32,000 bases of DNA from Candidatus Saccharimonadota bacterium (GCA_001761425.1 CP012986.1:570001-602000); one strand, 5' to 3'. Counted from the first letter of the stretch, positions 1-32,000 are shown. The notes: a model not told the origin generated them from the letters alone. A program made the numbers and translations.

Positions 1-369
1 GAAGCGAAGAGAAGAATCCTGCTTGGAACATATACTAGAATGGCAGGTTACAGGGACCAGTACTACATCAAAGCAGCTGAGGTTAGACAGAAGATAATCA
101 ACCAGTACAAAGAGGCCTTTGAAGAATTTGATGTCCTTCTGTCACCTTCTATGCCGAATATTGCGCCGAAGATTGAAGAGGCCGAGAGCATGGATCCTGC
201 CGAGATTTATGCGATGGATACTTTGACGGTAGGGCCTAACCTTGCTGGTTTACCGATGATCTCCGTTCCTAACGGGAAAAGCGAGGGTATGCCTACAGGC
301 CTTCATATTGTCGGCGACCATTTTGAAGAAAAAAAGATCCTGGATGTTGCTTACAGTTACAGGCGGTGA
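1..369 (+). CDS. gatA: Glu/Asp-tRNA amidotransferase subunit A (GatA), C-terminal part; 5' end lies outside the window
   Basis: The frame is open from nt 1 (EAKRRILLGTYTRMAGYRDQYY...). The C-terminal amidase-signature-family tail is ...LAGLPMISVPNG...GLHIVGDHFEEKKILDVAYSY, with stop TGA at 367-369. gatB lies 1.2 kb downstream. Confidence 0.8.
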   Translation, partial: EAKRRILLGTYTRMAGYRDQYYIKAAEVRQKIINQYKEAFEEFDVLLSPSMPNIAPKIEEAESMDPAEIYAMDTLTVGPNLAGLPMISVPNGKSEGMPTGLHIVGDHFEEKKILDVAYSYRR

Positions 370-1591
370 TTTATTTTTGGCAGAAGGAGAAGAAATAAAA
401 CAACAGGTTGTAGGGAACGTACCTTTCGGTCAGATCAATTCTATACTTGAAGGCAAGCTTGAGAGAGACGGCGAGAGAAGAAAAGCTGTCGAAGAGGTCG
501 AGGAAAACAGCAACCGGGTTATCACCGGGGGCGGGAAGCGTTTCCGCGTCGCACTTCCATATATCATGGCACAGGGCCTTGACCTTGATTACAGCGATGA
601 AGAGCTGATTGAGGCCTTTATCCCGATAGAGATGGCTCACGGCCTTTCCCTGGTCATGGATGACATGATAGATGAGGATAAAAAGAGGAGAGGCATGAAG
701 ACTCCGCATGAGCGGTTGAAAGATCAGGGCTATACGGATAAGCAGGCGGAATCGCTTGTTACCCTCGACGTAATGCAGATACTTTCAAGGGCGGAGAGAG
801 CACCTCTTGAACTTGATTTCCTGTCCAGAGACCAGCAGGTGGAGATAACAGAAACTATAGGAGATGGGATAACCAGACTGACCCGTGGACAGGAGCTGGA
901 CGTGGCAGGAGAAAACTCCATGGACGAAAAATTCCAGGAAAGACTCTCATACAGGGGAGACGAATTCAGCTACGAAATGTTTTACCGTGACGTCGTAGAA
1001 GGCAAGACATCACCGCTCTTCGAGGCAGGGCCGAGAATACTTGAGATAATGTCGGGAAAAGAACTGGAAAATCTTCACGACTACACCAGGAACCTGGCAA
1101 AGGCCTTCCAGATCAGAGACGACATCCTGGATATATCAGGTGGAGAGGAAAAAGTCAGTGTCACGGAAAGGCCTGAAGAAAAGGGTATAGGTAAGGATCG
1201 TTACTCTGATATCAGTGAGGGGACTATGACCCTGCCTATAAACTATGCGTTCCAGCTGATGGATGATGAGGACTGGGGCCAGATGGAGGCCTATGTAAAG
1301 GAGCTTGTGGATTCTGAGAACTATCTTGCTTCTGTAGATGACTTTTTCAAAGTCTACGGCGACAGGAGAGAGTTCCTTGAGTCCGTTATGAAGAAGGATA
1401 GTCCTGAAACATACGAGCTTCAGATCGCAGGTAAAATCATAGAGACTACCGGGGCTCTGGAGAAGGCGAACCAGGAGGCCTTGGATTATGCGGAAAATGC
1501 GGTCGAGAACCTTGAGGAATCCGGCCTTGACGGCGAGTACGGAGAACTTCTTGAGGATATGGCTTACTTCGCAGCTACAAGATCAAAATAA
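344..1591 (+). CDS. trans-polyprenyl diphosphate synthase (GGPP synthase-like)
   Basis: Both aspartate-rich motifs are present: LVMDDMIDEDKKRRG (DDxxD, first) and FQIRDDILD (second). The start is uncertain: TTG 308 (62-nt overlap with gatA), ATG 344, or TTG 377. There is an insert between the second DDxxD motif and the conserved ...GTMTLP segment. Confidence 0.8.
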   Translation: MLLTVTGGDLFLAEGEEIKQQVVGNVPFGQINSILEGKLERDGERRKAVEEVEENSNRVITGGGKRFRVALPYIMAQGLDLDYSDEELIEAFIPIEMAHGLSLVMDDMIDEDKKRRGMKTPHERLKDQGYTDKQAESLVTLDVMQILSRAERAPLELDFLSRDQQVEITETIGDGITRLTRGQELDVAGENSMDEKFQERLSYRGDEFSYEMFYRDVVEGKTSPLFEAGPRILEIMSGKELENLHDYTRNLAKAFQIRDDILDISGGEEKVSVTERPEEKGIGKDRYSDISEGTMTLPINYAFQLMDDEDWGQMEAYVKELVDSENYLASVDDFFKVYGDRREFLESVMKKDSPETYELQIAGKIIETTGALEKANQEALDYAENAVENLEESGLDGEYGELLEDMAYFAATRSK

Positions 1592-1617
1592 AAAGAATGA
1601 CTTAACCAAAAGATACT

Positions 1618-3024
1618 ATGACAAACGTAAAAATAGGCCTTGAGACACACGTACAACTTGATACAGAGACAAAACTTTTCTGCGGATGTCCAAATGAGGA
1701 AACAGAGGAACCGAACACGCATGTATGTGAGACCTGTCTGGGACACCCTGGTTCAAAGCCGAGGCTGAACAGGAAAGTCCTTGAATACGCAGTAAAGACC
1801 TCTCAGGCCTTACAGTGTGATATCAACGAAGATATTTTTTTCTCAAGGAAAACGTACTTTTATCCTGACATGTCCAAGAATTTCCAGATAACACAGTACG
1901 AGGTTCCGGTCGGAGAGGACGGAAGTATCGAGGTCAAGACCGGTGACGAGAAAAGAGAAATCGGTATCAACCGTCTACATATCGAGGAGGATCCGGCGAA
2001 GATGAAACACGAAGGCGGAAGCATTTCCAGCTCCGACTATACCAGGGTAGATTACAACAGAGCAGGCACACCGCTGCTTGAGATCGTGACAGCACCGGAC
2101 TTTGAATCGCCGAAGCAAGCACGGAGTTATCTCCAGCAACTGGCCCAGATGCTGGAATACCTCAAAATCTATCACCCGGAATCAGAGTTCTCCATCAAGT
2201 CAGATGCGAACATCTCGATCGACGGAGGCCAGAGAGTAGAAGTCAAAAACATTACAGGAACCGCAGGGATAGAAAAGGCCTTATCCTATGAGATCACGAG
2301 GCAGAAACAGTTGAAAAAACGTGGCAGGGAAATCACACAGCAGACCAGAAACTATAATGCGGGCCAGGAAATCACAGAAAAGATGAGGGAAAAAGAAGAG
2401 GAGAAAGACTACGGCTACATCTTTGACCCAGACCTGACCAGACAGGAACTCGACAAAGAGTTCAGGGAAAAGCTCAGAGGACAGATCCCGGAGCTTCCAT
2501 ACGAGAAATTCGACCGCTTCCTCGGTGAGTACGGCCTTGCGGAGAAACAGGTCGAGTCCCTGGTAAGAGACCAGCAGATGGCAGATGACTTCGAAAAACT
2601 CGCAGATAAACACGATACAGAAGTTACAGCGTCCTTCATGACAGGAGACCTGAGAAAAGTACTGAACTACAACGATAAAGAGTACAGGGGAGGCCTCAAA
2701 GTTGAATGGATCTCTTACCTTGTAGGCCTTCTTGAAGATGAGGAGATATCCGACAGGAACGCTGAAAAAGTTCTTAGAGAGATAGTCGAAGATCCTCAGA
2801 GCCCTGAACAGATAGTTGAAGATCAGGATCTGAAGAAAGCGGAAGAGTCAGAAGTAGACAGGTTTATCGACGAAGCTATTGATGACAATCCTGATGCGGT
2901 CGAAGACTACAGTTCAGGTGATGAAGGAGCGGTTAACTTCCTGGTAGGCCAGGTCATGAACCTTTCACAGGGCAAGGCCGATCCGAAAACCGCAAGGGAA
3001 AAAATCATAGAAAAACTTGGTTGA
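1618..3024 (+). CDS. gatB: Glu/Asp-tRNA amidotransferase subunit B (GatB)
   Basis: The N-terminus KIGLETHVQLDTETKLFCGCPN is the canonical GatB/GatE cradle start. The C-terminal YqeY-like tail is DDNPDAVEDYSSGDEGAVNFLVGQVMNLSQGKADPK. Confidence 0.9.
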   Translation: MTNVKIGLETHVQLDTETKLFCGCPNEETEEPNTHVCETCLGHPGSKPRLNRKVLEYAVKTSQALQCDINEDIFFSRKTYFYPDMSKNFQITQYEVPVGEDGSIEVKTGDEKREIGINRLHIEEDPAKMKHEGGSISSSDYTRVDYNRAGTPLLEIVTAPDFESPKQARSYLQQLAQMLEYLKIYHPESEFSIKSDANISIDGGQRVEVKNITGTAGIEKALSYEITRQKQLKKRGREITQQTRNYNAGQEITEKMREKEEEKDYGYIFDPDLTRQELDKEFREKLRGQIPELPYEKFDRFLGEYGLAEKQVESLVRDQQMADDFEKLADKHDTEVTASFMTGDLRKVLNYNDKEYRGGLKVEWISYLVGLLEDEEISDRNAEKVLREIVEDPQSPEQIVEDQDLKKAEESEVDRFIDEAIDDNPDAVEDYSSGDEGAVNFLVGQVMNLSQGKADPKTAREKIIEKLG

Positions 3025-3030
3025 ACGGCT

Positions 3031-3375: not shown

Positions 3376-3382
3376 AATTTTT

Positions 3383-8129: not shown

Positions 8130-8175
8130 GCTTTAACAGTAGAAATACGCTGTTAGATCCTCTAAACTTTTGGGA

Positions 8176-8250
8176 CGAACCCGCAGGGATTTGAACCCTG
8201 GGCCTAGCGGTCCGAAGCCGCTCGCTCTGTCCAGGCTGAGCTACGGGTCC
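8176..8250 (-). tRNA. tRNA-Arg (anticodon TCG)
   Basis: The reverse complement GGACCCGTAGCTCAGCCTGGACAGAGCGAGCGGCTTCGGACCGCTAGGCCCAGGGTTCAAATCCCTGCGGGTTCG folds by hand as a cloverleaf. It has a 7-bp acceptor stem, an AGCGG/CCGCT anticodon stem, loop CTTCGGA, and T-arm CAGGG-TTCAAAT-CCCTG. CCA is not encoded. Confidence 0.9.
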
Positions 8251-8316
8251 AGTCTAATATGTTTCAAAAGCTGAAAGGTTAAAAATCAGGTACGCAGATG
8301 GAGAGGGAAAAAGGCC

Positions 8317-11613: not shown

Positions 11614-11745
11614 AAAAAATATTTCGTGGAGTAAAATAGTTTAAACCTATAACCTTTCTCTGAAGTCTTCAAAGCTGTCCAGTACATGTAACGTACTGTA
11701 AGACAGTTTTTAGGCCTTCAGACCGGCTTGAAGCTTTGTGACACG

Positions 11746-12003: not shown

Positions 12004-12013
12004 AAAAAGTTTT

Positions 12014-14071: not shown

Positions 14072-14213
14072 CGGACCTGAAGGGATTTGAACCCTTGACT
14101 TCGAGGTATTTCCATTCGAAGACCAAGATCTTCTCTAACCCCCCAACTTTTGCGGAAGCTCAAGCAGGAGGTATTAGGAACCTCGCGCTCTGTCCATGCT
14201 GAGCTACAGGCCC
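14072..14213 (-). tRNA. tRNA-Arg (anticodon CCT) interrupted by a 67-nt intron at the canonical 37/38 position
   Basis: Exon 1 (14213->14175) is GGGCCTGTAGCTCAGCATGGACAGAGCGCGAGGTTCCTA. Exon 2 (14107->14072) is ACCTCGAAGTCAAGGGTTCAAATCCCTTCAGGTCCG. Joined, they give a 75-nt cloverleaf with a CGAGG/CCTCG anticodon stem and loop TTCCTAA. The 5' half is nearly identical to that of tRNA-Arg(TCG) at 8176-8250. Confidence 0.8.
14108..14174 (-). other. tRNA intron (67 nt)
   Basis: This sequence lies between the two exons. I saw no C/D-box motifs (RTGATGA / CTGA pair) in it. The bulge-helix-bulge fold was not verified by hand. Confidence 0.7.
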
Positions 14214-16042: not shown

Positions 16043-16055
16043 CAATGAAGGCCTT

Positions 16056-16988: not shown

Positions 16989-17197
16989 GAACTATGATTT
17001 TTAACTCCGAACAAAACCGACAGGTAACCTCAACCAGGAAGGCCTACACTACACCAAAAATCTAAGTTTTCAAAAAAGGGCGGTTGATCGCCGAAAAACA
17101 GGATTAACACCTGGGCGATCCCGTTCAAAGGCCTCAAAAAAAGTTTTTGACCACAGACTAAAAGTGAAATCGATGATAGAATCCCGGAAACATATCC

Positions 17198-17206
17198 TTT
17201 AAAATA
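17198..17206 (+). promoter_or_regulatory. TATA-like box (TTTAAAATA) upstream of tRNA-Gly
   Basis: Centred about 35 nt upstream of tRNA position 1. Confidence 0.3.
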
Positions 17207-17236
17207 GTAACCAGATAGTCCATGATTAGACCTGAG

Positions 17237-17308
17237 GCGGCGTTGGTCCAGTGGCTAAGACTCCGGCCTTCCAAGCCGGCGACCCGGGTTCAAATCCCGG
17301 ACGCCGCA
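17237..17308 (+). tRNA. tRNA-Gly (anticodon TCC)
   Basis: GCGGCGTTGGTCCAGTGGCTAAGACTCCGGCCTTCCAAGCCGGCGACCCGGGTTCAAATCCCGGACGCCGCA. It has acceptor GCGGCGT/ACGCCGC, anticodon stem CCGGC/GCCGG, loop CTTCCAA, and T-arm CCGGG-TTCAAAT-CCCGG. Confidence 0.9.
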
Positions 17309-17310
17309 AA
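17293..17310 (+). repeat. direct repeat copy 1 (AATCCCGGACGCCGCAAA), the 3' end of tRNA-Gly
   Basis: 18-nt exact match to 17412-17429. Confidence 0.85.
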
Positions 17311-17411
17311 TACATCGTATTTGCTCGAAGAAGCATTGAAAATTCGAATCCTTCGCCCCTCATCACTTTGTGCTCTTAATTCCGGGATTTCTGAGAAAAC
17401 TTGTTTTCGCC

Positions 17412-17429
17412 AATCCCGGACGCCGCAAA
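17412..17429 (+). repeat. direct repeat copy 2 (AATCCCGGACGCCGCAAA), an orphan copy of the tRNA-Gly 3' end
   Basis: 18-nt exact match to 17293-17310. No tRNA body precedes it. Confidence 0.85.
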
Positions 17430-17449
17430 CTGGTTACGCTCGTTTTCCC

Positions 17450-17468
17450 GAAAGCTCTCAGAGCTTTC
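17450..17468. repeat. 19-nt perfect palindrome GAAAGCTCTCAGAGCTTTC
   Basis: Read directly: 9-nt arms around a central C. It lies in the non-coding stretch after the orphan tRNA-end copy. Confidence 0.7.
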
Positions 17469-17530
17469 TGAAACAAGAAGGCCTGTTAAAGGCCTTCGAG
17501 ACACGCAATAAACCATGCTTTGCACGGCTT

Positions 17531-17665
17531 TCAGTATTTCAAGAAAATCTCCGATTTGCGGATCAAGTACCTTTCAACAGTAGCTTTTCCAATACCTGAA
17601 GAACCAATCATCATGATAGCAACTTTACCTTCCAGATCTGTAACAGGAACTAGATCGAAATTCCG
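17531..17665 (-). pseudogene. remnant of an SDR-family gene (N-terminal Rossmann segment only)
   Basis: Minus-strand translation gives ...NFDLVPVTDLEGKVAIMMIGSSGIGKATVERYLIRKSEIFLKY*. This is an SDR-like xGxxxGIG N-terminus with no ATG, and a stop about 20 codons after the glycine motif. Confidence 0.4.
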
Positions 17666-17734
17666 AAGTAAGCTTCTGGCGAAAGATTTTAACAGGCCTG
17701 TCCTCTCAAAAAGAAAGCCGACGCATTACTTTCT

Positions 17735-18533: not shown

Positions 18534-18542
18534 TTTATTTTT
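18534..18542 (+). promoter_or_regulatory. TATA-like box (TTTTATTTT) upstream of the giant gene
   Basis: Centred about 27 nt upstream of ATG 18565. This supports ATG 18565, rather than TTG 18541, as a leaderless start. Confidence 0.35.
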
Positions 18543-18564
18543 GGACGGCTCTCTTATTGTATAC

Positions 18565-21500
18565 ATGGATTCAGGTAAAATCTCGAAGCTCCTCCTGATT
18601 TTCCTCATCTTAGGCCTCATCCCTCTCTCAGCTTCTATATCAGAGGTTGACGTTCTCGTAGTTAACGATGGACACACCCTGGATCCATCGGCATCGGTAG
18701 ATTATAGCCAGGAGGTCGATGAGAATTTTGAGGATATCTACAACGAGTCTCTTAAATCTATACAAGGGGTGGATGTAGATTATAGTAAGACTTCGGACGA
18801 TGAAAAGGAATCCGGACCTTCTCTGGAGACTATGAACCAGTATGACATGGTTGTCTGGTACACTTTAGCAGATAGTGCTAGTTCTCCGGGCGGTTTCAAA
18901 ACTCTAACCAGTACTGATGAAGAAAATGTTCGCGAGTATCTGGATCAGGGGGGGACTTTCTATCTGACGGGCCATACCCTAGATGATGAGGAATCTCTTT
19001 ACGGTGAAGGAGATTTTTTCAGGGAGGTCATGAATGCCAGATACAAGGATAATGATGGAAGTCCAAATTACTGGAGGTTTACTGATAGAGGCTCAAATGA
19101 TGGAGAGGATTGGGAGTATGTACAGGTAACTGACGGGGCACTTTCAGATACGGATAGAATGCTGTTCGATCAGGACGGGAAAATTGTCCTGACAGGAGAA
19201 GACTCTCATGCTATAACTGAGGATATGTCCTTTGAACTCAATACATCCACTAACCCCCCAAGCTCTCTGGGAGTCCTGACCGATAACTGTTACCATGAAC
19301 AAGACAATGAGACCGAACTCGATCAGTGTGATCCTAATCCTTGGCAAAACGCAGATGATGGTCTCAGACTAGTCAATAACAAACCTGTAGCTGATAGTAA
19401 GGGTGATACTGTAGATAAGGAAAATGTCAACATAAACGGAGCGGGTGATTCCAGCAGGATCACAGTAGACTACAGCGAGAGCCCTGACATGAAAACCGTA
19501 GCTGGAGTTGCTGTAAAAGATTCTAAAGACGTTGAAATGGAGCATTTTGACATCAGTAACGATGAAGGAAGTATTAAGAAGCTGAAGTCTATAGAAACCG
19601 AAGCCTTTGACGTCTACACGTTTCTTATAGACGATCAGTCCGACGGAAATGCAGAGTTCCTATTTAACGATACTGCAAGGCTAGCAGCTATTACTGTAAC
19701 TGTGAAAAACGCTGTAGGAGCCTATCCTGCGACTGATGTAACTACCAAAAGTGCTCCGGAGGATATCAGTACTTCCGTAGAAAGCCAGGATGGGGACAGG
19801 GTTATAGACTTCCTGGCAGCCTCGGATAGTCCTAGCACAACAAATGACGAAATGAACGATATGGCCACTACCAATCTAGGAGGTAGCTCTACTTTCTTAA
19901 CCAAAAGATTGGAAGGTTCCGACCCAGAGAGAACTATGGGATACAGCGGGCCGGAAAACATGGCCCACATAGTAATCAACCTCAGAAAGGATAGGGCTGA
20001 CGCTGAATACTATGTAGAGACTGATGGCTATGAAGACAACGGAGAGCCGGCAAGCAATCCAGGAAACAGCAATAATCAGGCAGATTACCCTGATGAGTAC
20101 GCTCACACACTTGTGAACTCTAGAGAAGATAAGTACAGGACTTTGGTCAGTTCTATTGGCTTCGAATCTATCAAGGGAGAACAAAGCAGGAAGCAACTAA
20201 TGGATAACACTCTAAGATTTCTTACAGGTCCGGTCGCCAATAATACAAGAGTTTACTCAGGAGAAAATATACCGGATAGCGGTGCAGACGAGTCAAGATA
20301 CACTAACAGCACGCTAAATATTGAAGCTGAGGGAGAAAACCTTCAGCAAAATCCTTCAGGCCTCAGACGTGCACGCTTCCTGCATGAAGGAACTCCTCAG
20401 GAATTTAAGCCTACCTTTGAATCAGGATTTGATAACTTCACGGAAGCTAATCAGACATGGGAAGGCGATTCTGAAGATGGAGGTTATGCAACTGTAACTA
20501 GATCATGCGGGGTAAAGAAAGGAGATCAGGTCTTAACACTCTATGCAAGAGACGACGAAACTTTGTTAGATTCTCGCGATGATGTAGCTGCTGTGAGGAT
20601 GTCAGAACCTGTGGACGTATCAAATCACCAGAATCTTGTGCTTGAATTTTATGTCTCGGACGATGGAGTTGATTGCGATGAGCCTGAATACGATTATGGC
20701 GAGCATCTCGATGTTATGTACAAAAATAATAATGGCTCCTATAGTAGGGCCAGAACAATCTATGCTGAATCTGACAACGTTAACTGGAGGAAGGTTCAGG
20801 TAGAGATTCCCGTGGATCGCAATGATCAGTTCAAGGTAAAGTTTAAGACTAGGGAAATGGATGTTGGTGATGCCTGGCTTGTAGATGAGGTTGAGATCAA
20901 TCAAGGCCTTAGTTTAACCGATGGAAGATGGGGAGACCAGAAAGAAAGTGTGGAAGGCTTTATCAACGCTACTAAAGCTGTTGATAACCTTGATTCCAAT
21001 CCTCGAGGAGTGAATCTCACCTATGGCGTCCAGTTTAAGGATGATTCCAACCAGGGTTACTGGGGTGTTCCGGAGAAAAGATGGGTCAAAATTGATACGG
21101 TCCCTCCTAATTCTCTGACAGATGTGAGTTTCGAAGATGACTATACCTCAGATGAAACTGTTAATATTTCGGTTACAAATGACTTCATACTTGAAAAAAG
21201 GGCGAACCTGACCAGGTTCAGCTGTGATCCTGAAAATGGAGAGTGGTCGGAGTGGAGAACGAGAGATAGTCAACAGGTGAGTCAGAAGTTTGAAATAGAT
21301 ATCACTGATCAGGCCTTGGGGTGCAGTGATTCTCAGGGTAACAGGACGATAAGTGTTCAGACAAGGGATTATGCAGGGAACCGTGCTCCGGAGATCAAGA
21401 AGGACTGGATAATCTATGATGCTGAAAGACCTGATTTCCTGGGTGCAAGGCCTGGGAACAGGTCTGCCGTTCAGTCGGATGTCACTGTGAATATCACAGC

Positions 21501-24500
21501 TTCCGATAACTTCGGGATTTCTGACAGGTTTACGGAGTATAATGCTGGACAGGAGGACAGTATCTCTTTCACTCCGAACGAGACTGTAGGGCTTGATTTC
21601 ACTGGTGAAGGCTGGAGGACCCTTGAGGCCTGGATCTATGACAGGGCGTCGAATCTCAGGGAGGTGAGCCTTGACTACGATATCGATGATACTGCTCCCT
21701 GGGTCAACGTTACTCCTGAAAGTAATAACGAGCCTAAAAACGATACTGCTGTGAAGCCGGATGAAACGTTCAGGATTGAGGCCTTTGACAGGAATTTTGA
21801 GTCTCTGACCGTGAATTCTGTAGGTAACAGTACTTTTTCGAATAATGTCAGTGACTTTGATCCTGAGTGGTCTGGTGGAAAGGTCAGGGATCTTGAGGTC
21901 TGGTTGAATGATTCTGCCGGTAACCAGCGTTTCAGGAATTACAGCTATACTGTTGATGGTCAGGCTCCTGTCTCTGAAGCGGTTGATACGGCTAATGAGA
22001 GTTATGTGAAGAGTGATGATGTTTTGAAGTTCAACTTTTCGGACTCCACTTCCGGAGTTGAAGGTGTCTCCACTTCCAAGGACAGGGAGAGAGGGGTTGA
22101 CTGGGATCTTGGTGTAGGCTTTGGCTCGGATGCCAGTGGGGAGACCGATCTATCTGTATCTGCGACTGACCGTGCTGGAAACACTTTGACGGAGAATTAT
22201 ACCTATACTCTGGACGATGAGCCTCCGGTCGCCGAAACCAATTACAGCCGGGAGGCAGATTCCACGGATGGATGGTTCAACAGAGACGTGGAGGTCGAGG
22301 TAAACGCCACGGATAACCAGGAGCTAGATACGATTATCTACGGTTCCAGCAGGGATGGAAGTGTATCAGCACCTGAACTTACAAGTAACACGAACACCAG
22401 TATCAAGGTCACCTGTCCGAATTCAAACATCTGTGAAAAAGTTGTAACTTACAACGCCAATGATTCGGCGGGCAACTACTTCCGGGATTCCTACAGAGAA
22501 TCCGAGACAGTTTCAATCGATAAGAAAGCACCTCTGATCGAAATAGGATCTCTCACACAGTCAGGCCTCATCGAGATAGAATCAGAAATCAGAGATCCTG
22601 GTATCGGAGTCCAGGACGCAAGCTTCAGAGTCCTCAACAGGAGCGATACATCACAGGTTCTCGAGTCAGGAGACCTGAACGAATCGAATAACTGGTCCTA
22701 CATCTGGGACTCGGAACAGGATATAGACAGCACACAGGAAGTCACTCTCAAGATAGAGGCCGAGGACAGGTTCCAGCAAAACAGCACAGAACAGACCGAG
22801 TTCAAAGTTGAGAACGAGAAAACAACAGCAACCATAACAAATCCGGAAGACGAGATAGTATCCGACAACTTCGACCTCTCAATAGAGGCTAACAGGCCTG
22901 GAAACTCCGAAGGGCTTAAATGGCATAACTTCACGGTGGATAGGAACGGAGAAGAGGTCTACAGCGAATCAAAGAGCCTTGAAGGAGCCGATACCCATCT
23001 TTTCGACAGGCAGTTCGATACTACAGAGCTGGATGGCGACGGTAATTACAGTTTGAATACTACTGCACTGAGCAATGGGACATCAGAGTACGCAACGGCT
23101 GAAAAATGGTTCTACCTTGATACCAGGCCTCCAGAGGCCTTGATCGAGACGGATATCAACGATTCATGGGTCACAGGAAGGATAGAGATAGATTTCGCCG
23201 CCTCGGACAGTGTGGGCAACGGAACCCTAGAATCTTACTACATGAATGACTCTGACTGGCAGAGAATGAACAAGAACCTGAACTACTCGGATAAGGCCTT
23301 CAACTTCAGTACCTCCGACAGATGTCAGGACTCTGCCTCGAATACCTGTGGAGTCAAGATCGTCGCTGAGGATAAGGCAGGTAACCTTAACAGCTCAATG
23401 GTGGAGTTCAAAGTCGATAACAGTCCTCCGGAAGTTGATCTGACCGCACCGGATGCTGAGTGGCAGAACTCGAACTTTAACGTAGCCAGAAACATCAGTG
23501 ACAATGTAGTTGACTCGAGAGATCTCTACTGTGAGGTGAAAGTTAACTCTACAGGATGGCGGGAGACACAGCTCTGTAACACCAACTACACTGTAGATAT
23601 CTCGGAAAGCTGCGACAGGGAAGGAGGAATATGTCAGGTCGAGATAAATGCCTCCCATCCAGAACTTCCGCTATACCAGACAGATCAGAAGTTCTACTCC
23701 ATAGACACAGAGCAACCAGAAATATACACAGGACCGGAGCCAGCACCAGAAACAGTAATCAACGGCAGCGAAGATATAAGCCTAGGATTCCAGGAACCGA
23801 CCTCAGACATGAACTACTCGAAATGGGACGAAGGAAAAGGCCTGAAAGACCTGGAAACCGACCAACCTTTCAAGCCAGGATGGACCGAAAACGGAAACCG
23901 GACTTTGGAAATACTGCTGAACGACACGGCAGGAAACCTCAGAACAGAGCAGTACATATACACCTTCGACAACAAAGCCCCAGAACTCCAGAACTCAGGC
24001 CTCTCCGTATCAGAAGACGGATTCTTCGACGAAACCAGGGTGTACAGGGGAGAAGAGATCAAGCTGGAGCTGAACGTATCCGAGAACATAGAGATGGAAA
24101 AAGTTACTGCCGAGATAAGCAGCGATGGGGAAAACTGGAACAAATCACTTCAACTCGAGGAAGGAAACCTGACCGAAGGCCTCTGGACCAAAAACCTGGC
24201 CAATACGACAACAGGCCTCTACACCGTCCAGAAAGTGTACCTGGAAGATAGAGCAGGGAACAGAACCAGGGTCTCCTCAAGCCTTCCGGAGTTCAGGATC
24301 ATGAACTACTCCGAAAACGTTGAGATAGGTGGAATGAAAGAAGTAGATGCAGGGAACAGCACGGATTTCAACTACACAGTAGATTTCAACAGGACTCAAG
24401 GAGAGAGGCAGCTCAAAGTCTACGTTCCGCCCTCCGGTCCGGGAGAAACCTTTGACCCATACTTCCAGCTGGAAAACGTATCCTGTAAAACATCAGAATG

Positions 24501-27500
24501 TAACGTGACCCATCAGGAAAACTTCTTTAACCTATCATACACCGGAGGAAGCCCTGAGGTATCGGTGACAGCTCATTCAGAGGCCTTCACTCCTGAACAA
24601 GATACTGAAGGTAATTTCACATCTCAACTGCTTGATAACACGAGGAAGAGCGAGGTAAAGATCAGTGCTCCCGAACTGGAGATAAACAGCAGTTCCTGTA
24701 GTCCTGCATGTACGCTGGACCAGTTTGACAGCTTCAACCTGACCCTCGAGCCAGTGAACAATATGACATCTACCAGCACCGGTACAGCCCTGAACACGAG
24801 TCTCTCTATCTCCTCTGGAGGCCTCGAGGATAGATCGAGAGAACTTGGAAACCTTGGAACTGGAGAAAATCTCAGTGAGAGGTTCGCGGATATCTCATCG
24901 GACGAGGCAGGAAACTTCACCTATGACGCTGTCCTCGAGGATGCTACAGGAGTTTACAGGGACTCAAAGGAGATCGAGGTAGAGTTCCTGGACGCAGAGG
25001 AACCCGATATTGTTGATGCAGGGCCTTCCTCCAGAAGAGTAAACGTCAACGACTCCATAGATCTTCTGGCAGAACTAACCGACAACGTCGAAGTCGCCGA
25101 TGCAAACCTGACCCTTGAATATCCGAACGGCACGGCACAGAACCTCTCCCTGGACAGAGACATAGAAAACGAATGGGCAAACTCTTTCAACAAAACATCT
25201 GAAAAAGGAATCTACCAGCTCAAAAAAGTCTATGCCTCAGACCGGAGAGAAAACACAAACCAGACCACGCTCAACTCACAGTTCAAGGTGACAGAACTCA
25301 GACTCAACTCCTCTGTTTCAAAGACCAATATACAAAACCGGGAAGCTGTCAACTTCACAGTAAACATAACAGGAAACTCCACAGAAGTCCAGAGAGTCAC
25401 GGTAAACGCGTCCACACCAGAAGGCCTCAACCGGTCCAGAGAATACACCGATGTAGGCCTCAACAACACTCTTAAATTCGACCGGTTCGATAACTCAGGA
25501 AACTACTCCTTCAACGTCACGGTAAACGCAGGCCTCAAAGTCACTAATCAGACCTCAGACGTCTTCGTCAGGTACGGGAACAGCTCAGTAGAATCTCTGG
25601 ACTCAGGAAACAACAGGACTCTGGAGATACCGGAGACCATAAGTTCAGCATCCCTTGAATGGAGACTCACACCGATCAACGGGAGCCTGAAAAACCTCGC
25701 CTTCGAGCCCGGTTCAAATGACGAAACAGTTCTCAGCACAGGATCTGCCCAGAGTGTAGATGATCTCGTCTACACTGAAGGAGCAAGGACCGAACAGCTT
25801 ACAGTAAACCCGGAAAACACAGGATCAGCAGATATAACAGCTATCCTCGAGGCAGAAAACGGAGGAAACACGAGTAAACAAGTCTCCGTAGAAGTCACAG
25901 AACAGGACAATGAAAGGCCTCAGATCAACTCCTTCAACCTATCGGAAAAAGACTTGAACCTTAATGAAACACTCGATTTCTCTGCAAATATAACAGACAA
26001 CTCGATAATCAAAAACTCAACGCTAGAGATCGGCTATCCTAACCCGTCAAACGCTACAGAGACCATAAACATGGAGAGAATCGGAGAACAGACCTATCAA
26101 ACGGAGTTCAACAACCTGAACCAGACAGGAAATTACACAGCAACTCTCAAGGCCTACGATATCTCCGGAAACAGCTACATGGTCGCAGAGAATTTCACAG
26201 TCACCGATAGATACAGTATAGAGATCGATACCGACAAAAGCATATACATGAAGGAAGAAGATGCGGTCATAAGCTTCGATGTCCTGGACGCAAGCGGAGA
26301 TCAGGTCAAAAACTACAGCCTGAACTCCTCGATAGAATACAGCAACTCCAATCATTCACTGGTCGAAGGCCAGAACGTTTCAAGGACAGAGTTCACAGTT
26401 GAAAGAGATTATCCGCCAGATATAACCAATGAACTTGGCGGAGACCCTATCTACTACAGCATATACGCTGAGGCCTCAAGCAGAGGAAACAAAGGAAAGG
26501 CCTCGGCCAGCATGCCGGTTCACAGGGTATTCGACGTAAGTCTGAACAACGATCAGTACGTTGCTCCAGGTGAGAACTTCCTCGTGACCTCTGACTGGAG
26601 AAAGAAGAATGGAGAGCTTCTGCCTCAGACATGGCAGCCGTTTATACTCTGTGATGCCTGTCCAAGCAACTACAAACTCATGTTGAGAGATCTGGAGACA
26701 GATAATTATGTCAAGAACTTGACAGCCCCGAACCAGACAGGCAGCTATTCCTTCACGCTCAGAGGTTCATACCAGGGTAACTCGGAGAGCCAGGATCCTA
26801 CAGGTGCGGAGGACGAACCTCCATTCGGCACATTCGAAGTCGTACCAGGCGGGAAACCGCCGAACAGTGGCGATGAGGAACAGGCTCTGCCTTCAGGAGG
26901 CGGTGGAGGATTCTCTGGAGGAGGGCCTTCGATGGAGATTGTAAGACGGTCGCCTCCTCCAAGCATCCCTTCGGGAACCGAACAGGTGAACCTGTCTGTG
27001 AACACCAATATCGCGGCCGAATGCGTTTATTCAAGGAACAGGGTTCCAGAGGCCGTCCCATTCGATGAGGCCTCAGATTTCCAGGAAACCGGCGGAGTGA
27101 ATCACAGCACGCCGTTAACTGCAGAAGAAGGTGTGACGTACAGCTACAACATTATGTGTGCCTCTGGCGAAGCCAACTCGACCCAGGAGATTATTTTCTC
27201 CACAGAAACTCTGGAAGGCTTCTCATACGCAGGCCCTACATCAGTCACGCCAAACAACGAGTCCGTATCACAGAAAGGAAACTACAGTGCAAGAGTAGCT
27301 GTCTACAACGAGAAAAGCGAGGCCTTGACCGTAGACCTGGACGTCGAGGGAACCTGCTGCAACCTGAGCTTTATGATCGGCTCAGAGAAGAAAGAATCGG
27401 TCACGATACCGGCTGAAGGAGAGAAAAACCTGGATCTGAACGTCTACTCCCCGCTTCATGTAAAACCAGGATCCTACAACGGGACCCTAAAATTAACAAG

Positions 27501-28215
27501 TCCAAACGAATCGACCAGCAGGCCTATAAATTATCAAGTCAGCCGACACTCAGCAGTTGAAAACTACACCGATCTCAGGACACGTGCAGGAATCCTCAAC
27601 TCCACCATCAGCGACTACAGGATCGCAGGAATAGATACCTCAAACATGGAAAAGGCCTATCAAAACCTGACATCTCATCTAGAAGAGGCAAACTCCTCCA
27701 TCCAAAGAGATGACCTTCAGGGCCTTAAGGCCTCAGTTGTCGAAGCCAGATCTGACGCTGAAACAGTTAGAAAGATGCTCGATAACGCCTCCTGGAAGAA
27801 ATACATCTTGTTGAACTGGTGGAAGTGGGCAGCAGGATTTGTAGGTCTGTATATTTTGTTCTTCCTGGCTGTGATGGTTGGAATACCATACTACAGGATC
27901 CAGACAGAGCTGACAAGGATTAACAGCCAGTTGGAAAGTGCTGTGGACGCAAGAAAGAAAGGAGAGAAACAGTACTTCCAGAGAAAGATCGACAAGGATA
28001 CATTCAACGAAATGATGACAGAAAGACAGAATGAGGTACTCCAGCTACGCGGAGACAAAGAAGATCTTAAAGAAGAGCTGGACGGGTTCTTAATGAGCAA
28101 ACTTACGCTGGAGAATTACCTGAAAGCACCGTGGAAAGGCATGGAGGAAATGGAGAAATGGTGGGCAGCCAACAGAAAGGCCCGCCAGAACCTCAAAGAT
28201 GAACAAGAAGAATAG
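18565..28215 (+). CDS. giant (~3,216 aa) membrane-anchored, sequon-rich cell-surface protein / putative adhesin
   Basis: A single uninterrupted ORF. The N-terminal signal-like sequence is MDSGKISKLLLIFLILGLIPLSAS. Next come a ~600-aa N-terminal module and a jelly-roll/MAM-like module (~20410-20905). A tandem array of ~90-110-aa Ig-like units follows, marked by D-x-x-(A/P/Q)-P boundaries and D-x-(A/S)-G-N motifs. Later elements are a Gly-rich linker (PSGGGGGFSGGGPS), a single C-terminal TM helix (AAGFVGLYILFFLAVMVGIPYY, ~27829-27895), and a ~105-aa charged coiled-coil tail. I counted about 118 N-x-S/T sequons by hand. Confidence 0.85.
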   Translation: MDSGKISKLLLIFLILGLIPLSASISEVDVLVVNDGHTLDPSASVDYSQEVDENFEDIYNESLKSIQGVDVDYSKTSDDEKESGPSLETMNQYDMVVWYTLADSASSPGGFKTLTSTDEENVREYLDQGGTFYLTGHTLDDEESLYGEGDFFREVMNARYKDNDGSPNYWRFTDRGSNDGEDWEYVQVTDGALSDTDRMLFDQDGKIVLTGEDSHAITEDMSFELNTSTNPPSSLGVLTDNCYHEQDNETELDQCDPNPWQNADDGLRLVNNKPVADSKGDTVDKENVNINGAGDSSRITVDYSESPDMKTVAGVAVKDSKDVEMEHFDISNDEGSIKKLKSIETEAFDVYTFLIDDQSDGNAEFLFNDTARLAAITVTVKNAVGAYPATDVTTKSAPEDISTSVESQDGDRVIDFLAASDSPSTTNDEMNDMATTNLGGSSTFLTKRLEGSDPERTMGYSGPENMAHIVINLRKDRADAEYYVETDGYEDNGEPASNPGNSNNQADYPDEYAHTLVNSREDKYRTLVSSIGFESIKGEQSRKQLMDNTLRFLTGPVANNTRVYSGENIPDSGADESRYTNSTLNIEAEGENLQQNPSGLRRARFLHEGTPQEFKPTFESGFDNFTEANQTWEGDSEDGGYATVTRSCGVKKGDQVLTLYARDDETLLDSRDDVAAVRMSEPVDVSNHQNLVLEFYVSDDGVDCDEPEYDYGEHLDVMYKNNNGSYSRARTIYAESDNVNWRKVQVEIPVDRNDQFKVKFKTREMDVGDAWLVDEVEINQGLSLTDGRWGDQKESVEGFINATKAVDNLDSNPRGVNLTYGVQFKDDSNQGYWGVPEKRWVKIDTVPPNSLTDVSFEDDYTSDETVNISVTNDFILEKRANLTRFSCDPENGEWSEWRTRDSQQVSQKFEIDITDQALGCSDSQGNRTISVQTRDYAGNRAPEIKKDWIIYDAERPDFLGARPGNRSAVQSDVTVNITASDNFGISDRFTEYNAGQEDSISFTPNETVGLDFTGEGWRTLEAWIYDRASNLREVSLDYDIDDTAPWVNVTPESNNEPKNDTAVKPDETFRIEAFDRNFESLTVNSVGNSTFSNNVSDFDPEWSGGKVRDLEVWLNDSAGNQRFRNYSYTVDGQAPVSEAVDTANESYVKSDDVLKFNFSDSTSGVEGVSTSKDRERGVDWDLGVGFGSDASGETDLSVSATDRAGNTLTENYTYTLDDEPPVAETNYSREADSTDGWFNRDVEVEVNATDNQELDTIIYGSSRDGSVSAPELTSNTNTSIKVTCPNSNICEKVVTYNANDSAGNYFRDSYRESETVSIDKKAPLIEIGSLTQSGLIEIESEIRDPGIGVQDASFRVLNRSDTSQVLESGDLNESNNWSYIWDSEQDIDSTQEVTLKIEAEDRFQQNSTEQTEFKVENEKTTATITNPEDEIVSDNFDLSIEANRPGNSEGLKWHNFTVDRNGEEVYSESKSLEGADTHLFDRQFDTTELDGDGNYSLNTTALSNGTSEYATAEKWFYLDTRPPEALIETDINDSWVTGRIEIDFAASDSVGNGTLESYYMNDSDWQRMNKNLNYSDKAFNFSTSDRCQDSASNTCGVKIVAEDKAGNLNSSMVEFKVDNSPPEVDLTAPDAEWQNSNFNVARNISDNVVDSRDLYCEVKVNSTGWRETQLCNTNYTVDISESCDREGGICQVEINASHPELPLYQTDQKFYSIDTEQPEIYTGPEPAPETVINGSEDISLGFQEPTSDMNYSKWDEGKGLKDLETDQPFKPGWTENGNRTLEILLNDTAGNLRTEQYIYTFDNKAPELQNSGLSVSEDGFFDETRVYRGEEIKLELNVSENIEMEKVTAEISSDGENWNKSLQLEEGNLTEGLWTKNLANTTTGLYTVQKVYLEDRAGNRTRVSSSLPEFRIMNYSENVEIGGMKEVDAGNSTDFNYTVDFNRTQGERQLKVYVPPSGPGETFDPYFQLENVSCKTSECNVTHQENFFNLSYTGGSPEVSVTAHSEAFTPEQDTEGNFTSQLLDNTRKSEVKISAPELEINSSSCSPACTLDQFDSFNLTLEPVNNMTSTSTGTALNTSLSISSGGLEDRSRELGNLGTGENLSERFADISSDEAGNFTYDAVLEDATGVYRDSKEIEVEFLDAEEPDIVDAGPSSRRVNVNDSIDLLAELTDNVEVADANLTLEYPNGTAQNLSLDRDIENEWANSFNKTSEKGIYQLKKVYASDRRENTNQTTLNSQFKVTELRLNSSVSKTNIQNREAVNFTVNITGNSTEVQRVTVNASTPEGLNRSREYTDVGLNNTLKFDRFDNSGNYSFNVTVNAGLKVTNQTSDVFVRYGNSSVESLDSGNNRTLEIPETISSASLEWRLTPINGSLKNLAFEPGSNDETVLSTGSAQSVDDLVYTEGARTEQLTVNPENTGSADITAILEAENGGNTSKQVSVEVTEQDNERPQINSFNLSEKDLNLNETLDFSANITDNSIIKNSTLEIGYPNPSNATETINMERIGEQTYQTEFNNLNQTGNYTATLKAYDISGNSYMVAENFTVTDRYSIEIDTDKSIYMKEEDAVISFDVLDASGDQVKNYSLNSSIEYSNSNHSLVEGQNVSRTEFTVERDYPPDITNELGGDPIYYSIYAEASSRGNKGKASASMPVHRVFDVSLNNDQYVAPGENFLVTSDWRKKNGELLPQTWQPFILCDACPSNYKLMLRDLETDNYVKNLTAPNQTGSYSFTLRGSYQGNSESQDPTGAEDEPPFGTFEVVPGGKPPNSGDEEQALPSGGGGGFSGGGPSMEIVRRSPPPSIPSGTEQVNLSVNTNIAAECVYSRNRVPEAVPFDEASDFQETGGVNHSTPLTAEEGVTYSYNIMCASGEANSTQEIIFSTETLEGFSYAGPTSVTPNNESVSQKGNYSARVAVYNEKSEALTVDLDVEGTCCNLSFMIGSEKKESVTIPAEGEKNLDLNVYSPLHVKPGSYNGTLKLTSPNESTSRPINYQVSRHSAVENYTDLRTRAGILNSTISDYRIAGIDTSNMEKAYQNLTSHLEEANSSIQRDDLQGLKASVVEARSDAETVRKMLDNASWKKYILLNWWKWAAGFVGLYILFFLAVMVGIPYYRIQTELTRINSQLESAVDARKKGEKQYFQRKIDKDTFNEMMTERQNEVLQLRGDKEDLKEELDGFLMSKLTLENYLKAPWKGMEEMEKWWAANRKARQNLKDEQEE

Positions 28216-29786: not shown

Positions 29787-29815
29787 AAAACCACTGTTTG
29801 TGCGGGAGAAATATA

Positions 29816-29842
29816 GAGAAAAAATGTTTTTAAGGCCTTTTT
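29816..29842. terminator. bidirectional oligo-T/oligo-A region between the convergent KaiC-like genes
   Basis: GAAAAAATGTTTTTAAGGCCTTTTT contains two T5 runs on the plus strand and one T6 run on the minus strand. Confidence 0.35.
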
Positions 29843-30529
29843 CTAGAATCCGGCCTGTTCTTTCATCTTGATTCCATTATCTGTTATCTCTACAGGATGT
29901 GTTCCCGGTGTGTGATCTGTTCTTCTCATTTTTCTGACTTCGATGTTTCTGAAGCTTCCTTCTCCCATCGATTCGTAGTAAAGGGCTACTACTCCGTCGG
30001 CTACGAACTCAGATACGTTTGATCGGGAAAGTGAGTTCTCACTGTTTTCAGGGATCTCTGCTGTCATGATTACTGTTGAGTCGGATTTCCTGAGCATTTT
30101 GACCAAGTCCTGAAGGTTTCTTCTGACTTCAAATTTGTCGCCCCAGTAAGTGGTGAAGACGCTCATCGAGTCCAGTATCACCCGGTCATAGTCTCCGCTG
30201 TGAAGTAACTGTTTAACCTGTCCAGAAAGATACTGGTTTTCAGACGGCTCACTGTACTCCATCCTGAGATCTCCCTCATCCTCATGCTTCCTAAGATCCC
30301 ATCCAAATACAACAGCATCATCCCTGATAGCTTCGATAGGCTCCTCAGTAGAAATATACAGACATTTCTGCCCCTTACTGATTCCCTCCATCAAGAACTG
30401 GTTACAGAAAGTAGTCTTACCCGTACCTGTACCGCCTGAGATCAAAGTAACAGAACTCTCCGGAAAACCACCGTCAATCAAATCATCAAGGCCTTCAATC
30501 CCCGTCGTAATTCTCTCAACTTCAGTCAT
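29843..30529 (-). CDS. KaiC/RecA-superfamily ATPase, single domain
   Basis: GIEGLDDLIDGGFP, Walker A GGTGTGKT, Walker B VILDSM, and ...EVRKMRRTDHTPGTHPVEI. It is 228 aa. Confidence 0.8.
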   Translation of the reverse strand: MTEVERITTGIEGLDDLIDGGFPESSVTLISGGTGTGKTTFCNQFLMEGISKGQKCLYISTEEPIEAIRDDAVVFGWDLRKHEDEGDLRMEYSEPSENQYLSGQVKQLLHSGDYDRVILDSMSVFTTYWGDKFEVRRNLQDLVKMLRKSDSTVIMTAEIPENSENSLSRSNVSEFVADGVVALYYESMGEGSFRNIEVRKMRRTDHTPGTHPVEITDNGIKMKEQAGF

Positions 30530-30551
30530 AAGCTAGTTTACTACTTCCCTG

Positions 30552-30560
30552 TTTAAATTT
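30552..30560 (-). promoter_or_regulatory. TATA-like box (TTTAAATTT) upstream of the minus-strand KaiC-like gene
   Basis: Centred about 27 nt upstream of start codon 30529. Confidence 0.3.
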
Positions 30561-30713
30561 CTTACAAAAAAAGACGGCCATTCCAAACCTTTTGAACAGA
30601 TAAAATATATCCGGTAGTTGAAAACAAGATTCGATCATATTTGTGGGAGAGGCCGAGGTACTGACTCATCCTTGTTTTCCTCTACTTTTATCTCGGTTAT
30701 ACTTCTCTGGCAG

Positions 30714-30725
30714 AAAATTTTAATT
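30714..30725 (+). promoter_or_regulatory. TATA-like box (AAAATTTTAATT) upstream of the AI-2E transporter gene
   Basis: Centred about 29 nt upstream of ATG 30749. Confidence 0.3.
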
Positions 30726-30748
30726 CATTCATGTTCTAAAACCAGTTC

Positions 30749-31750
30749 ATGGAGTTTGACCGGCAGAACGCGTTTATCTATTCAGCTACTGTCTTAATCG
30801 CGTTCATCTGTTTCCTGATGATATCTCCATACATAGGATACCTTCTCTCAGGCCTTCTACTTGCTTTCGTAACCTATCCTCTGTTCCAGAAGTTTAGAGA
30901 AAAACTCGGGCCTCACATCTCCGCCACCCTGGTCCTCGTTGTAACAGTTTTCATGGCGATCCTGCCTTTCCTGATACTTCTCGGAGCCGTCGGAGGAGAC
31001 GCAGCACAGCTTGTCTCAAACATCAATACTACAGAAGGCCTTGAAACCATAGAAACTGCTGAACAGCTAATCACCCGGTACACAGGACAGAACGTCGATC
31101 TCCAGCAGAGAGCAGGAAACCTTGTCGGTCAAGTAGCATCCACACTGCCATCCAGCCTTTCATCTGTTATAGGCCTTGCAGCAGACCTGTCAATAGGTAT
31201 CTCTCTCATGCTCTTCCTGCAATTCTACGCCCTGAAAGACGGTAAAAAAATGATCGACTGGACCAAAAAATTCGACTACATAACAACGGAAAGACAGGAC
31301 ATGCTCTACACATCCACCGCCAGATCGGTATGGTCAGTCGTCAAAGGACACGTCCTCATGGCATTCACACAGGGAATACTCTCAGGCATAGGCCTCTGGA
31401 TCTTCGGAGTACCGAACATCCTGTTCTGGACATTCATGATGATACTGCTCGGATTCATACCCATCGTCGGAGCAGCCCTCATCTGGGCGCCAGCAGCCTT
31501 ATTCCTCATGCTAGAAGGACAGATAACATCAGGAGTCCTACTACTTATCTACGGAACAGTAATAGTAGGAGGAAGCGACAACCTGCTCAGACCCCTCGTA
31601 GTAGACGACGAAGCAGACATACACCCATTCTTCATCCTCATAGGCCTCATAGGAGGAGTAGGCCTCTTCGGACCCGTAGGCCTCTTCCTGGGACCAGTAA
31701 TCTTTGGAATCCTCAAAAACCTCCTCGACATAATCCTTCAAAAACAGTAG
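30749..31750 (+). CDS. AI-2E family (PerM/UPF0118) transporter
   Basis: 333 aa with about 8 TM helices. The typical family arrangement is present, including ...LGFIPIVGAALIWAPAALFL... and ...GGSDNLLRPLVV. Confidence 0.7.
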   Translation: MEFDRQNAFIYSATVLIAFICFLMISPYIGYLLSGLLLAFVTYPLFQKFREKLGPHISATLVLVVTVFMAILPFLILLGAVGGDAAQLVSNINTTEGLETIETAEQLITRYTGQNVDLQQRAGNLVGQVASTLPSSLSSVIGLAADLSIGISLMLFLQFYALKDGKKMIDWTKKFDYITTERQDMLYTSTARSVWSVVKGHVLMAFTQGILSGIGLWIFGVPNILFWTFMMILLGFIPIVGAALIWAPAALFLMLEGQITSGVLLLIYGTVIVGGSDNLLRPLVVDDEADIHPFFILIGLIGGVGLFGPVGLFLGPVIFGILKNLLDIILQKQ

Positions 31751-31809
31751 ATCCCCCCAGAACACGAAAAAACCTCATGGTAAAGGCCTCCACAACTTCG
31801 AGCGCAACA

Positions 31810-31817
31810 TTTATAAA
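31810..31817 (+). promoter_or_regulatory. TATA-like box (TTTATAAA) with no annotated gene downstream
   Basis: Same octamer as at 6629-6636. The predicted start near 31840-31845 precedes a structured, non-acidic region (see findings). Confidence 0.3.
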
Positions 31818-32000
31818 TGCCGGATCGTAAAGAATAAATATGAGTCACGCAGCACACACCGCAACAAGCGGAACGCACCTGTCAACCAATCGCTGTGTGA
31901 CCTTTATCTATCAAGTGTTTTCCATTCCGAATATCCTGTATAACTGATACAGGATAAGTAGGTTGGGACGACCTGGCCTGGCTCACAACTCAGTGGGCCC

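Follow-up and report, generated by a model that had tools for sequence, protein, structure and literature searches.

AGGCCT is a near-saturating, clade-restricted palindrome in nanohaloarchaeal genomes

The window and its AGGCCT sites

We analysed a 32,000-nucleotide stretch of DNA (CP012986.1:570001-602000; hereafter the window, numbered from its first letter) in which the palindromic hexamer AGGCCT occurs far more often than expected. The window carries housekeeping genes for a polyprenyl synthase, gatB, pyruvate kinase, nadE, a thioredoxin reductase and two KaiC-like ATPases, together with a giant open reading frame (ORF). The nearest relatives of its proteins are in Nanohaloarchaeota, in agreement with an earlier reading of the DNA by eye (the sequence-only reading), which had supposed a host-dependent nano-archaeon. 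The source is probably the genome of Candidatus Nanopetramus SG9, from halite of the Salar Grande, and hence we label it SG9. By exact protein matches the window corresponds to roughly 576-608 kb of contig Ga0136257_100001 (JGI 3300010222). AGGCCT enrichment is a genome-wide, DNA-level feature of one Nanohaloarchaeota clade, and is the product neither of codon usage nor of a repeat element. A sequence identical to the window is found in the Logan assemblies of SRR2630167, and the enrichment recurs across assemblies of independent origin (JGI, Logan, ENA and NCBI), complete genomes of cultured strains among them; this agreement rules out an assembly artefact. The sites and stretches referred to below are as follows.

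1 to 32000, no strand: field of 130 dispersed AGGCCT sites, 4.06 per kb, flanks not conserved
1169 to 1174, plus strand: frame-0 site, AGG-CCT (Arg-Pro), in the polyprenyl synthase gene
1635 to 1640, plus strand: frame-2 site, nnA-GGC-CTn (x-Gly-Leu), at gatB codon 6 (GatB alignment column 17)
11712 to 11717, no strand: intergenic site; further intergenic sites at 16049, 29833 and 31784
17040 to 17699, no strand: five intergenic sites around the gene for glycine transfer RNA (tRNA-Gly), at 17040, 17129, 17479, 17490 and 17694, none inside the tRNA
18618 to 20357, plus strand: longest site-free stretch (1,746-bp gap), where the giant ORF begins
31642 to 31683, plus strand: three sites at an exact 18-bp spacing in a glycine-rich stretch close to the C-terminus of an AI-2E transporter (Pfam AI-2E_transport)

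Excess and near-saturation of the motif

An exact machine count over the 32,000 bases gives 130 AGGCCT sites, the very number that the sequence-only reading had estimated by hand, which removes the objection that the hand count was inflated. Every site that reading had placed is real and lies in the frame assigned to it, with the correction that the sites at 113 and 297 fall in the 3' end of gatA, a gene that runs off the start of the window. AGGCCT is the commonest hexamer in the window, and the second and third, AAGGCC and GGCCTT, are both overlaps of it. Base composition (zero order) predicts 6.6 sites, a 19.6-fold excess that matches the roughly 20-fold over-representation (6-8 sites expected) first proposed, and a first-order Markov model predicts 7.8 (16.7-fold). 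The contiguous SG9 sequence of 48.9 kb holds 203 sites (4.15 per kb), and six other genomes show a 10- to 24-fold excess.

Higher-order Markov models predict more sites (23.6 at order 2, 57.6 at order 3 and 116 at maximal order), and the last figure is what can be said for a reading with no special signal, in which AGGCCT would follow from codon usage, from dipeptide or base composition, from a dispersed repeat or from faulty assembly. Because 130 of the 156 AGGCC and 130 of the 149 GGCCT 5-mers in the window are motif copies, however, the maximal-order expectation is circular and uninformative, and we therefore replaced that test with codon shuffles and low-order models. When synonymous codons are shuffled with all protein sequences and total codon usage held constant, 15.3 ± 3.5 AGGCCT result (maximum 24), and a shuffle of codon order yields 8.8 ± 3.0, against 118 observed in genes. 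Of the two null models that the sequence-only reading had proposed, the codon-based one is clearly beaten, whereas the maximal-order one is circular.

The 118 genic sites occupy all three frames (15 in frame 0, 43 in frame 1 and 60 in frame 2) in genes on both strands, and nine sites lie in 2,234 bases of intergenic DNA, where 0.30 are expected (~30-fold). With gene calls that match the public annotation, the intergenic density of 4.03 per kb equals the coding density of 4.07 per kb. The pressure for AGGCCT is strong and directional whatever the frame, strand or coding status, as had been noticed by eye; likewise, being its own reverse complement, AGGCCT is not a polar signal such as Chi or the FtsK-orienting polar sequences (KOPS). 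The no-special-signal reading is refuted by the codon shuffles, by the intergenic density and by a comparison with orthologues (below), where non-enriched genomes use different codons for the same residues. The unique sequence flanking the sites and the agreement between independent assemblies and cultured-strain genomes also speak against it, and we give it virtually no chance.

Other palindromes are avoided in the window: GAGCTC occurs once against 13.5 expected, CAATTG not at all against 7.8 and AGCGCT not at all against 4.5, while CTAG and GCGC stand at 0.29 and 0.24 of expectation. GAGCTC fits GDGCHC, an N4-methylcytosine (m4C) restriction-modification site reported for Nanohalococcus occultus. 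ARAGORN calls only tRNA-Arg (8173-8251) and tRNA-Gly (17237-17308); it missed a 142-nt tRNA match on the minus strand at 14072-14213 (Rfam, 50 bits), presumably intron-containing by its length. None of these three tRNA genes contains AGGCCT.

The sequence-only reading had seen A before and T after the motif and suggested AAGGCCTT as an extended core. In the window AAGGCCTT is counted 23 times against 22.8 expected from its component 7-mers, and we reject it as an extended core, although a weak purine/pyrimidine flank preference stands. A purine precedes the motif (position -1) in 72% of half-sites, mirrored at +1, and among the twelve sites first classed as non-coding (two of which, 113 and 297, are in fact the gatA sites), A is at -1 in eight and T at +1 in seven. 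Positions -6 to -2 and +2 to +6 are near background composition and sites lie inside unique coding sequence; with no sequence shared beyond the core, a dispersed repeat element, either a repetitive extragenic palindrome (REP) or a miniature inverted-repeat transposable element (MITE), is ruled out.

Among the 70 other GGCC tetramers in the window, 45 are one-mismatch variants at the outer positions, and the idea that such variants are decaying copies holds: NGGCCT/AGGCCN are 1.8- to 3.0-fold over the order-1 expectation in enriched genomes against 0.7- to 1.15-fold in non-enriched relatives. One-mismatch variants at inner positions stand at 0.5-1.2 times expectation in enriched genomes. Outer variants are in excess and inner ones at or below expectation, which places the strongest restoring force on the GGCC core.

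Within genes, AGGCCT can be written as Arg-Pro (frame 0), as Lys, Glu or Gln followed by Ala and a codon starting with T (frame 1), or with a final-A codon ahead of Gly-Leu (frame 2). We defined occupancy as the share of such amino-acid-compatible positions that actually carry AGGCCT. In the window genes 118 of 161 compatible positions (73%) are occupied, with an occupancy of 0.4-1.0 in every gene, and 15 of the 20 Arg-Pro dipeptides are written AGGCCT. Most unoccupied compatible positions are one change from the motif, often one transition. The motif is near saturation at the positions that the amino acids permit, a property that had escaped the sequence-only reading. The AI-2E transporter stretch at 31642-31683 illustrates this, with three x-Gly-Leu tripeptides each spelled A-GGC-CTC. 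In the giant ORF (18541-28215, plus strand) the motif sits at 30 of 37 compatible positions (0.81); as to the site-free stretch at its start, the two 1-kb bins covering 18541-20540 offer just three compatible positions, two of them occupied. The giant ORF itself (3,216-3,224 amino acids) has no Pfam hit on record, precedes the two KaiC-like ATPase genes and resembles the giant 'SPEARE'-class surface proteins described for nanohaloarchaea.

Sites are spaced at a mean of 245 bp with a coefficient of variation of 0.91, against 0.98 ± 0.09 for random placement; the periodicity that the sequence-only reading had proposed to look for is absent at the scale of the window. Site pairs just 10-18 bp apart are all occupied. 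Because of the saturation, the random spacing and the retention of sites at 10-18 bp, each site appears to be favoured on its own. These features bear on the possibility that an abundant dimeric protein of the chromatin or nucleoid binds AGGCCT, with selection for a coverage of ~1 site per 250 bp. A palindrome would suit a homodimer, coding and intergenic densities are equal, the sites are conserved (below), and Xu et al. favour a chromosome-structure role for HIP1, the highly iterated palindrome (HIP) of cyanobacteria (PMC5861425). Coverage, however, requires neither random-like spacing nor the keeping of such close pairs, and 75-85% saturation together with changes in proteins (below) goes beyond selection for a density threshold. 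As several close relatives are entirely without the motif and no candidate protein is known, we see only a small chance that chromatin binding explains it.

Maintenance and distribution among relatives

We compared SG9 with related genomes over up to 11 orthologous genes (~49 kb of SG9 and ~10-21 kb per relative), with neighbour-joining trees. Sister strains (96.6% and 98.3% identity) retain 169 of 173 SG9 sites, with 151 expected (P = 1.6e-6), a comparison in which strain-level change events are few. L162, also enriched, is 79.6% identical to SG9 and shares 43 of 58 sites in alignment, against a conservation of 29.9% for hexamers in general (P = 5e-12). Among hexamers with unaltered amino acids, the motif is kept letter for letter at 36 of 44 sites (82%) and other hexamers at 38.7% (P = 6e-9). 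The motif is actively and currently maintained, with synonymous positions inside the sites conserved far beyond background. The force acts at the DNA level, is sequence-specific, works site by site and is ongoing.

Occupancy differs sharply between relatives and falls into four groups.

High, 0.72-0.85: SG9, its sister strains, L162, L012, L013, Nanosalina sp. VS9-1 and NHA29
Intermediate, 0.46-0.62: M3_22 (locus L002) and Nanohalovita BNXNv
Low but above baseline, 0.24 (P = 0.001): L001
Baseline, 0.00-0.12 (pooled 9/231, 0.04): eleven other nanohaloarchaea, including Nanohalobium constans LC1Nh and Nanohalococcus occultus

Where the alignment has AGGCCT in enriched genomes, the non-enriched ones spell identical amino acids with different codons. 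Codon 6 of gatB is a case in point: all enriched genomes that cover the position have AGGCCT, and non-enriched relatives have AGGACT, AGGATT, CGGGCT, TGGTCT and similar. In the neighbour-joining tree all enriched genomes fall within one clade, which also holds the non-enriched LC1Nh/L011 group and L009; because non-enriched members are nested among enriched ones, enrichment either arose once and was lost two or more times, or arose repeatedly. No relic of the motif is seen in L011 (0/12 positions occupied, with a baseline-like mismatch spectrum). AGGCCT enrichment is confined to one clade and differs, on or off, even between close relatives, which the sequence-only reading had missed; it depends on a factor that varies among them, with high, intermediate and absent states.

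The enriched lineages themselves differ in their flanks. GAGGCC/GGCCTC dominates in Nanosalina VS9-1 and NHA29 (L010 and L006, compared with the window), and AAGGCC/GGCCTT in SG9 and M3_22. The difference may reflect Glu versus Lys usage or a lineage-specific 'dialect' of the motif.

In the same genes, enriched genomes have 4.3 compatible positions per kb and non-enriched ones 2.9 (~45% more; Mann-Whitney P = 2e-4), and for 13 of the 30 SG9 sites that could be evaluated, compatible amino acids occur in fewer than 20% of the non-enriched orthologues. The pressure has therefore reached protein sequences.

One enriched contig changes character part-way. L013 (contig JBDGSL010000008.1, 1-9131) has a sharp boundary at ~5,790, with equal GC content on both sides. 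To its right, 3.3 kb with gatA, polyprenyl synthase and gatB hold 10 sites, and 10 of 15 compatible positions are occupied; to its left, 5.8 kb with genes for SOD, thioredoxin, FMN reductase, PEBP and DUF2267 hold 2 AGGCCT, and 2 of 15 are occupied (Fisher P = 0.008 for right versus left). The left part shows no synteny with any nanohaloarchaeal locus compared, and is either recently acquired, not yet converted DNA or one half of a chimeric contig.

Four Halobacteria-type loci (L014, L015, L017 and L018; 63 kb in total) contain a single AGGCCT against 7.6-20 expected (Markov orders 0-2), a ~250-fold contrast in density between the enriched clade and haloarchaeal, host-type DNA. Codon bias or restriction pressure could account for this scarcity. 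The contrast, with 1 site in 63 kb against 4 per kb, also suits a reading of AGGCCT as a tag for the uptake or recombination of kin DNA, in the manner of the uptake signal sequences (USS) of Haemophilus and the DNA uptake sequences (DUS) of Neisseria. A dimeric import or exchange receptor would prefer AGGCCT-bearing DNA, and biased uptake with homologous recombination would act as a molecular drive that tells self from host DNA. Like uptake sequences, AGGCCT occurs in coding and non-coding DNA, is lineage-specific, on or off, conserved between strains and made up of independent sites; recent preprints tie HIP1 to transformation and type IV secretion genes; and giant nanohaloarchaeal surface proteins carry a VirB4/TraG-like ATPase (PMC10266531), with a giant ORF present in the window. 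Known uptake sequences, however, are asymmetric and 9-12 nt long, whereas AGGCCT is a 6-bp palindrome with a weak flank preference, and a 6-mer confers low specificity. Neither competence nor DNA exchange has been documented for Nanohaloarchaeota, a receptor gene has not been identified, and the giant ORF of the window lacks a Pfam hit on record. An uptake tag thus keeps a minor chance, far from even.

A metagenome scan for close relatives returned only relatives at no more than 73% identity, and the close strains were found through exact-protein matches. Scans of IMG/VR for viral contigs with clustered AGGCCT gave, among the matches listed, mostly chance occurrences. The only dense contigs among these matches are L038, L212 and L261, which are related to each other (GC 34-37%) and have 2-3.6 AGGCCT per kb. 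There AGGCCT sits in a different, 12-mer palindrome, TTAAGGCCTTAA, present in many copies, and the contigs have no similarity to the nanohaloarchaeal loci; TTAAGGCCTTAA is a separate repeated motif of this virus group.

Proposed explanation and known systems

How might a hexamer come to fill so many of the positions open to it? By analogy with HIP1, we propose, with about even confidence, that AGGCCT is a HIP-type palindrome on which a resident DNA enzyme system with sequence specificity acts; the likeliest such system would pair an orphan cytosine methyltransferase of StuI specificity with a step of repair or recombination. The resident methyltransferase would mark AGGCCT, and a correction step linked to it would preserve mutations that yield a site and undo those that abolish one, as in the ratchet that Elhai proposed for HIP1 (PMC4390886). 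Near-cognate sites would be converted one by one and independently until saturation, and lineages that lose the factor would decay to baseline. The outcome would be a dense methyl 'self' mark, which the cell might use to discriminate strands, to recognise its own DNA against the host's or to exchange DNA. A drive, be it biased repair, recombination or uptake, fits the independence of the sites more easily than does selection for a coverage threshold.

Some published data suit such a methyltransferase. Cytosine methylation of AGGCCT exists in nature, as AgGCcT in Alcanivorax (PMC12128166). In a REBASE survey, the enriched M3_22 has one restriction-modification gene, an orphan Type II m4C methyltransferase, and no m4C gene is listed for the non-enriched LC1Nh (PMC10609329). 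The single-molecule real-time (SMRT) methylome of N. occultus SVXNc contains only GDGcHC (PMC10266531), and the N. occultus locus that we compared (CP180231, which may be from another strain than SVXNc) is not enriched. In our own sequences, the AGGCCT-specific methyltransferase gene that the sequence-only reading had thought worth seeking was not found in the loci examined: motifs of 5-methylcytosine (m5C) enzymes (PCQ) and of N4/N6 enzymes (D/N/S-PP-Y/F/W) have no real match in the nanohaloarchaeal loci. One candidate, in L009, proved to be a Na/Pi transporter. When gene presence and absence were compared across the syntenic block between enriched and non-enriched genomes, nothing tracked the trait, and pyruvate kinase is present in LC1Nh as well.

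In SG9, some 7-9 kb past the right end of the window (L036:3120-5178), a stand-alone VRR-NUC nuclease gene of the PD-(D/E)XK type adjoins an AAA ATPase gene, with Mre11-like and Rad50-like genes nearby.

Several points count against an orphan methyltransferase coupled to repair. The 49 kb examined of SG9, like some ~100 kb from enriched relatives, encode no methyltransferase and no nuclease tied to the motif. The equal coding and intergenic densities (from nine intergenic sites) could reflect selection for a set density, and at saturation the conservation of sites cannot separate selection from drive. The depletion that very-short-patch repair predicts fails to appear, with AGGCTT at 1.1 and AGGTCT at 0.9 of expectation, and we know of no case in which m4C drives the creation of a motif. 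The enriched BNXNv is reported with only a Type III Mod/Res system (PMC10266531), the REBASE survey lists neither Vsr nor an m5C methyltransferase for M3_22 (PMC10609329), and Xu et al. take similar conservation of HIP1 sites as a sign of selection, not of biased repair (PMC5861425).

The repair data also bear on a specific rival, classical Dcm/Vsr very-short-patch repair, in which an m5C methyltransferase and a T:G mismatch endonuclease would over-correct near-cognate sites. Shifts in oligomer abundance driven by repair have a precedent at CCWGG in E. coli, and unoccupied compatible positions are often one transition from the motif. The deamination products are not depleted, however (AGGCTT/AAGCCT at 1.12 and AGGTCT/AGACCT at 0.91 of expectation), neither enzyme is listed for the enriched M3_22 in the REBASE survey, and known Vsr effects are ~2-fold, not 20-fold; we regard this mechanism as very unlikely. 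A broader alternative is an as yet unknown archaeal site-specific drive, such as a biased mismatch-correction nuclease or the uptake and recombination of kin DNA. It would have produced a dense 'self' tag in an organism that shares its host's cytoplasm, strong enough to rewrite proteins and gained or lost between sister lineages, and to this we assign a modest chance, well below that of the methyltransferase-based HIP system.

A search of a literature library returned no paper linking AGGCCT to nanohaloarchaea; those describing SG9 (bioRxiv 10.1101/029934), BNXNv/SVXNc and the methylomes make no mention of it. A HIP-type motif of six bases in archaea, near saturation and with on and off states in nature, is apparently undescribed. 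Hyper-abundant palindromes have been studied almost solely in cyanobacteria, where three decades of work have not settled the origin of HIP1, and AGGCCT would supply an independent archaeal case in ~1-Mb genomes with few repair or restriction-modification genes (just one of the latter in M3_22). Natural on, intermediate and off states exist among close relatives, several of them cultured or with complete genomes ('on', Nanohalovita BNXNv and Nanosalina VS9-1; 'off', Nanohalobium constans LC1Nh and Nanohalococcus occultus), and the mechanism is therefore directly testable. The motif is also a strong signature for binning nanohaloarchaeal contigs and assigning hosts, and it can expose foreign or chimeric stretches within genome bins, L013 being an example. 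If a drive is at work, DNA-level pressure alters amino-acid sequences in a reduced symbiont genome.

Four groups of known systems share part of this picture. Restriction sites are normally avoided, not accumulated, and for the Alcanivorax density given next a genome of ~3 Mb is assumed. The StuI-type restriction-modification system of Alcanivorax borkumensis SK2 has the same AGGCCT site, methylated as AgGCcT on both strands, but there the site serves defence and is not hyper-abundant (1,674 sites, ~0.5 per kb) (PMC12128166). Dam (GATC, with MutH and SeqA) and Dcm (CCWGG, with Vsr) of gamma-proteobacteria likewise use orphan sites genome-wide in repair and replication, and repair can shift oligomer abundance; their effects, however, are at most ~2-fold, and the Vsr deamination signature is not seen here. 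The persistent orphan m4C methyltransferases of archaea (CTAG in Halobacteria) are clade-conserved Type II enzymes, and the orphan m4C gene of enriched M3_22 is of the same kind, but CTAG is under-represented and the M3_22 enzyme falls outside the persistent clusters (PMC10609329). Like AGGCCT, USS and DUS are dispersed, lineage-specific, genic and intergenic and found in either orientation, and their upkeep is put down to a drive, not to any function of the single sites; unlike AGGCCT, they are non-palindromic, 9-12 nt long and dependent on known competence machinery.

The closest known analogue, which the sequence-only reading had not raised, is cyanobacterial HIP1. Five operational features of a HIP are present: an excess of at least 15-fold across the genome (19.6-fold at zero order, 16.7-fold at order 1), occurrence in all frames beyond what codon usage explains, presence in intergenic DNA, conservation between related genomes beyond background, and one-nucleotide deviants biased to the first and last positions. 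HIP1 (GCGATCGC) and the alternate HIPs of cyanobacteria are also short GC-rich palindromes, 15- to 300-fold over-represented (PMC4390886, PMC5861425), that occur in all frames and between genes, are conserved between genomes and are lost in some lineages; for HIP1, Elhai reports the same excess of one-off variants only at the outer positions (PMC4390886). A link to a methyltransferase has been proposed for HIP1 too, and its function is debated between a repair ratchet, nucleoid structure and DNA uptake. AGGCCT differs in being a 6-mer rather than an 8-mer, in belonging to archaeal DPANN symbionts rather than cyanobacteria, and in reaching ~4 per kb against the ~1 per kb cited by Elhai (PMC4390886). 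A further difference is the near-saturation of compatible positions quantified here. The likeness to HIP1 proper, with its other motif, is one of kind and not of membership.

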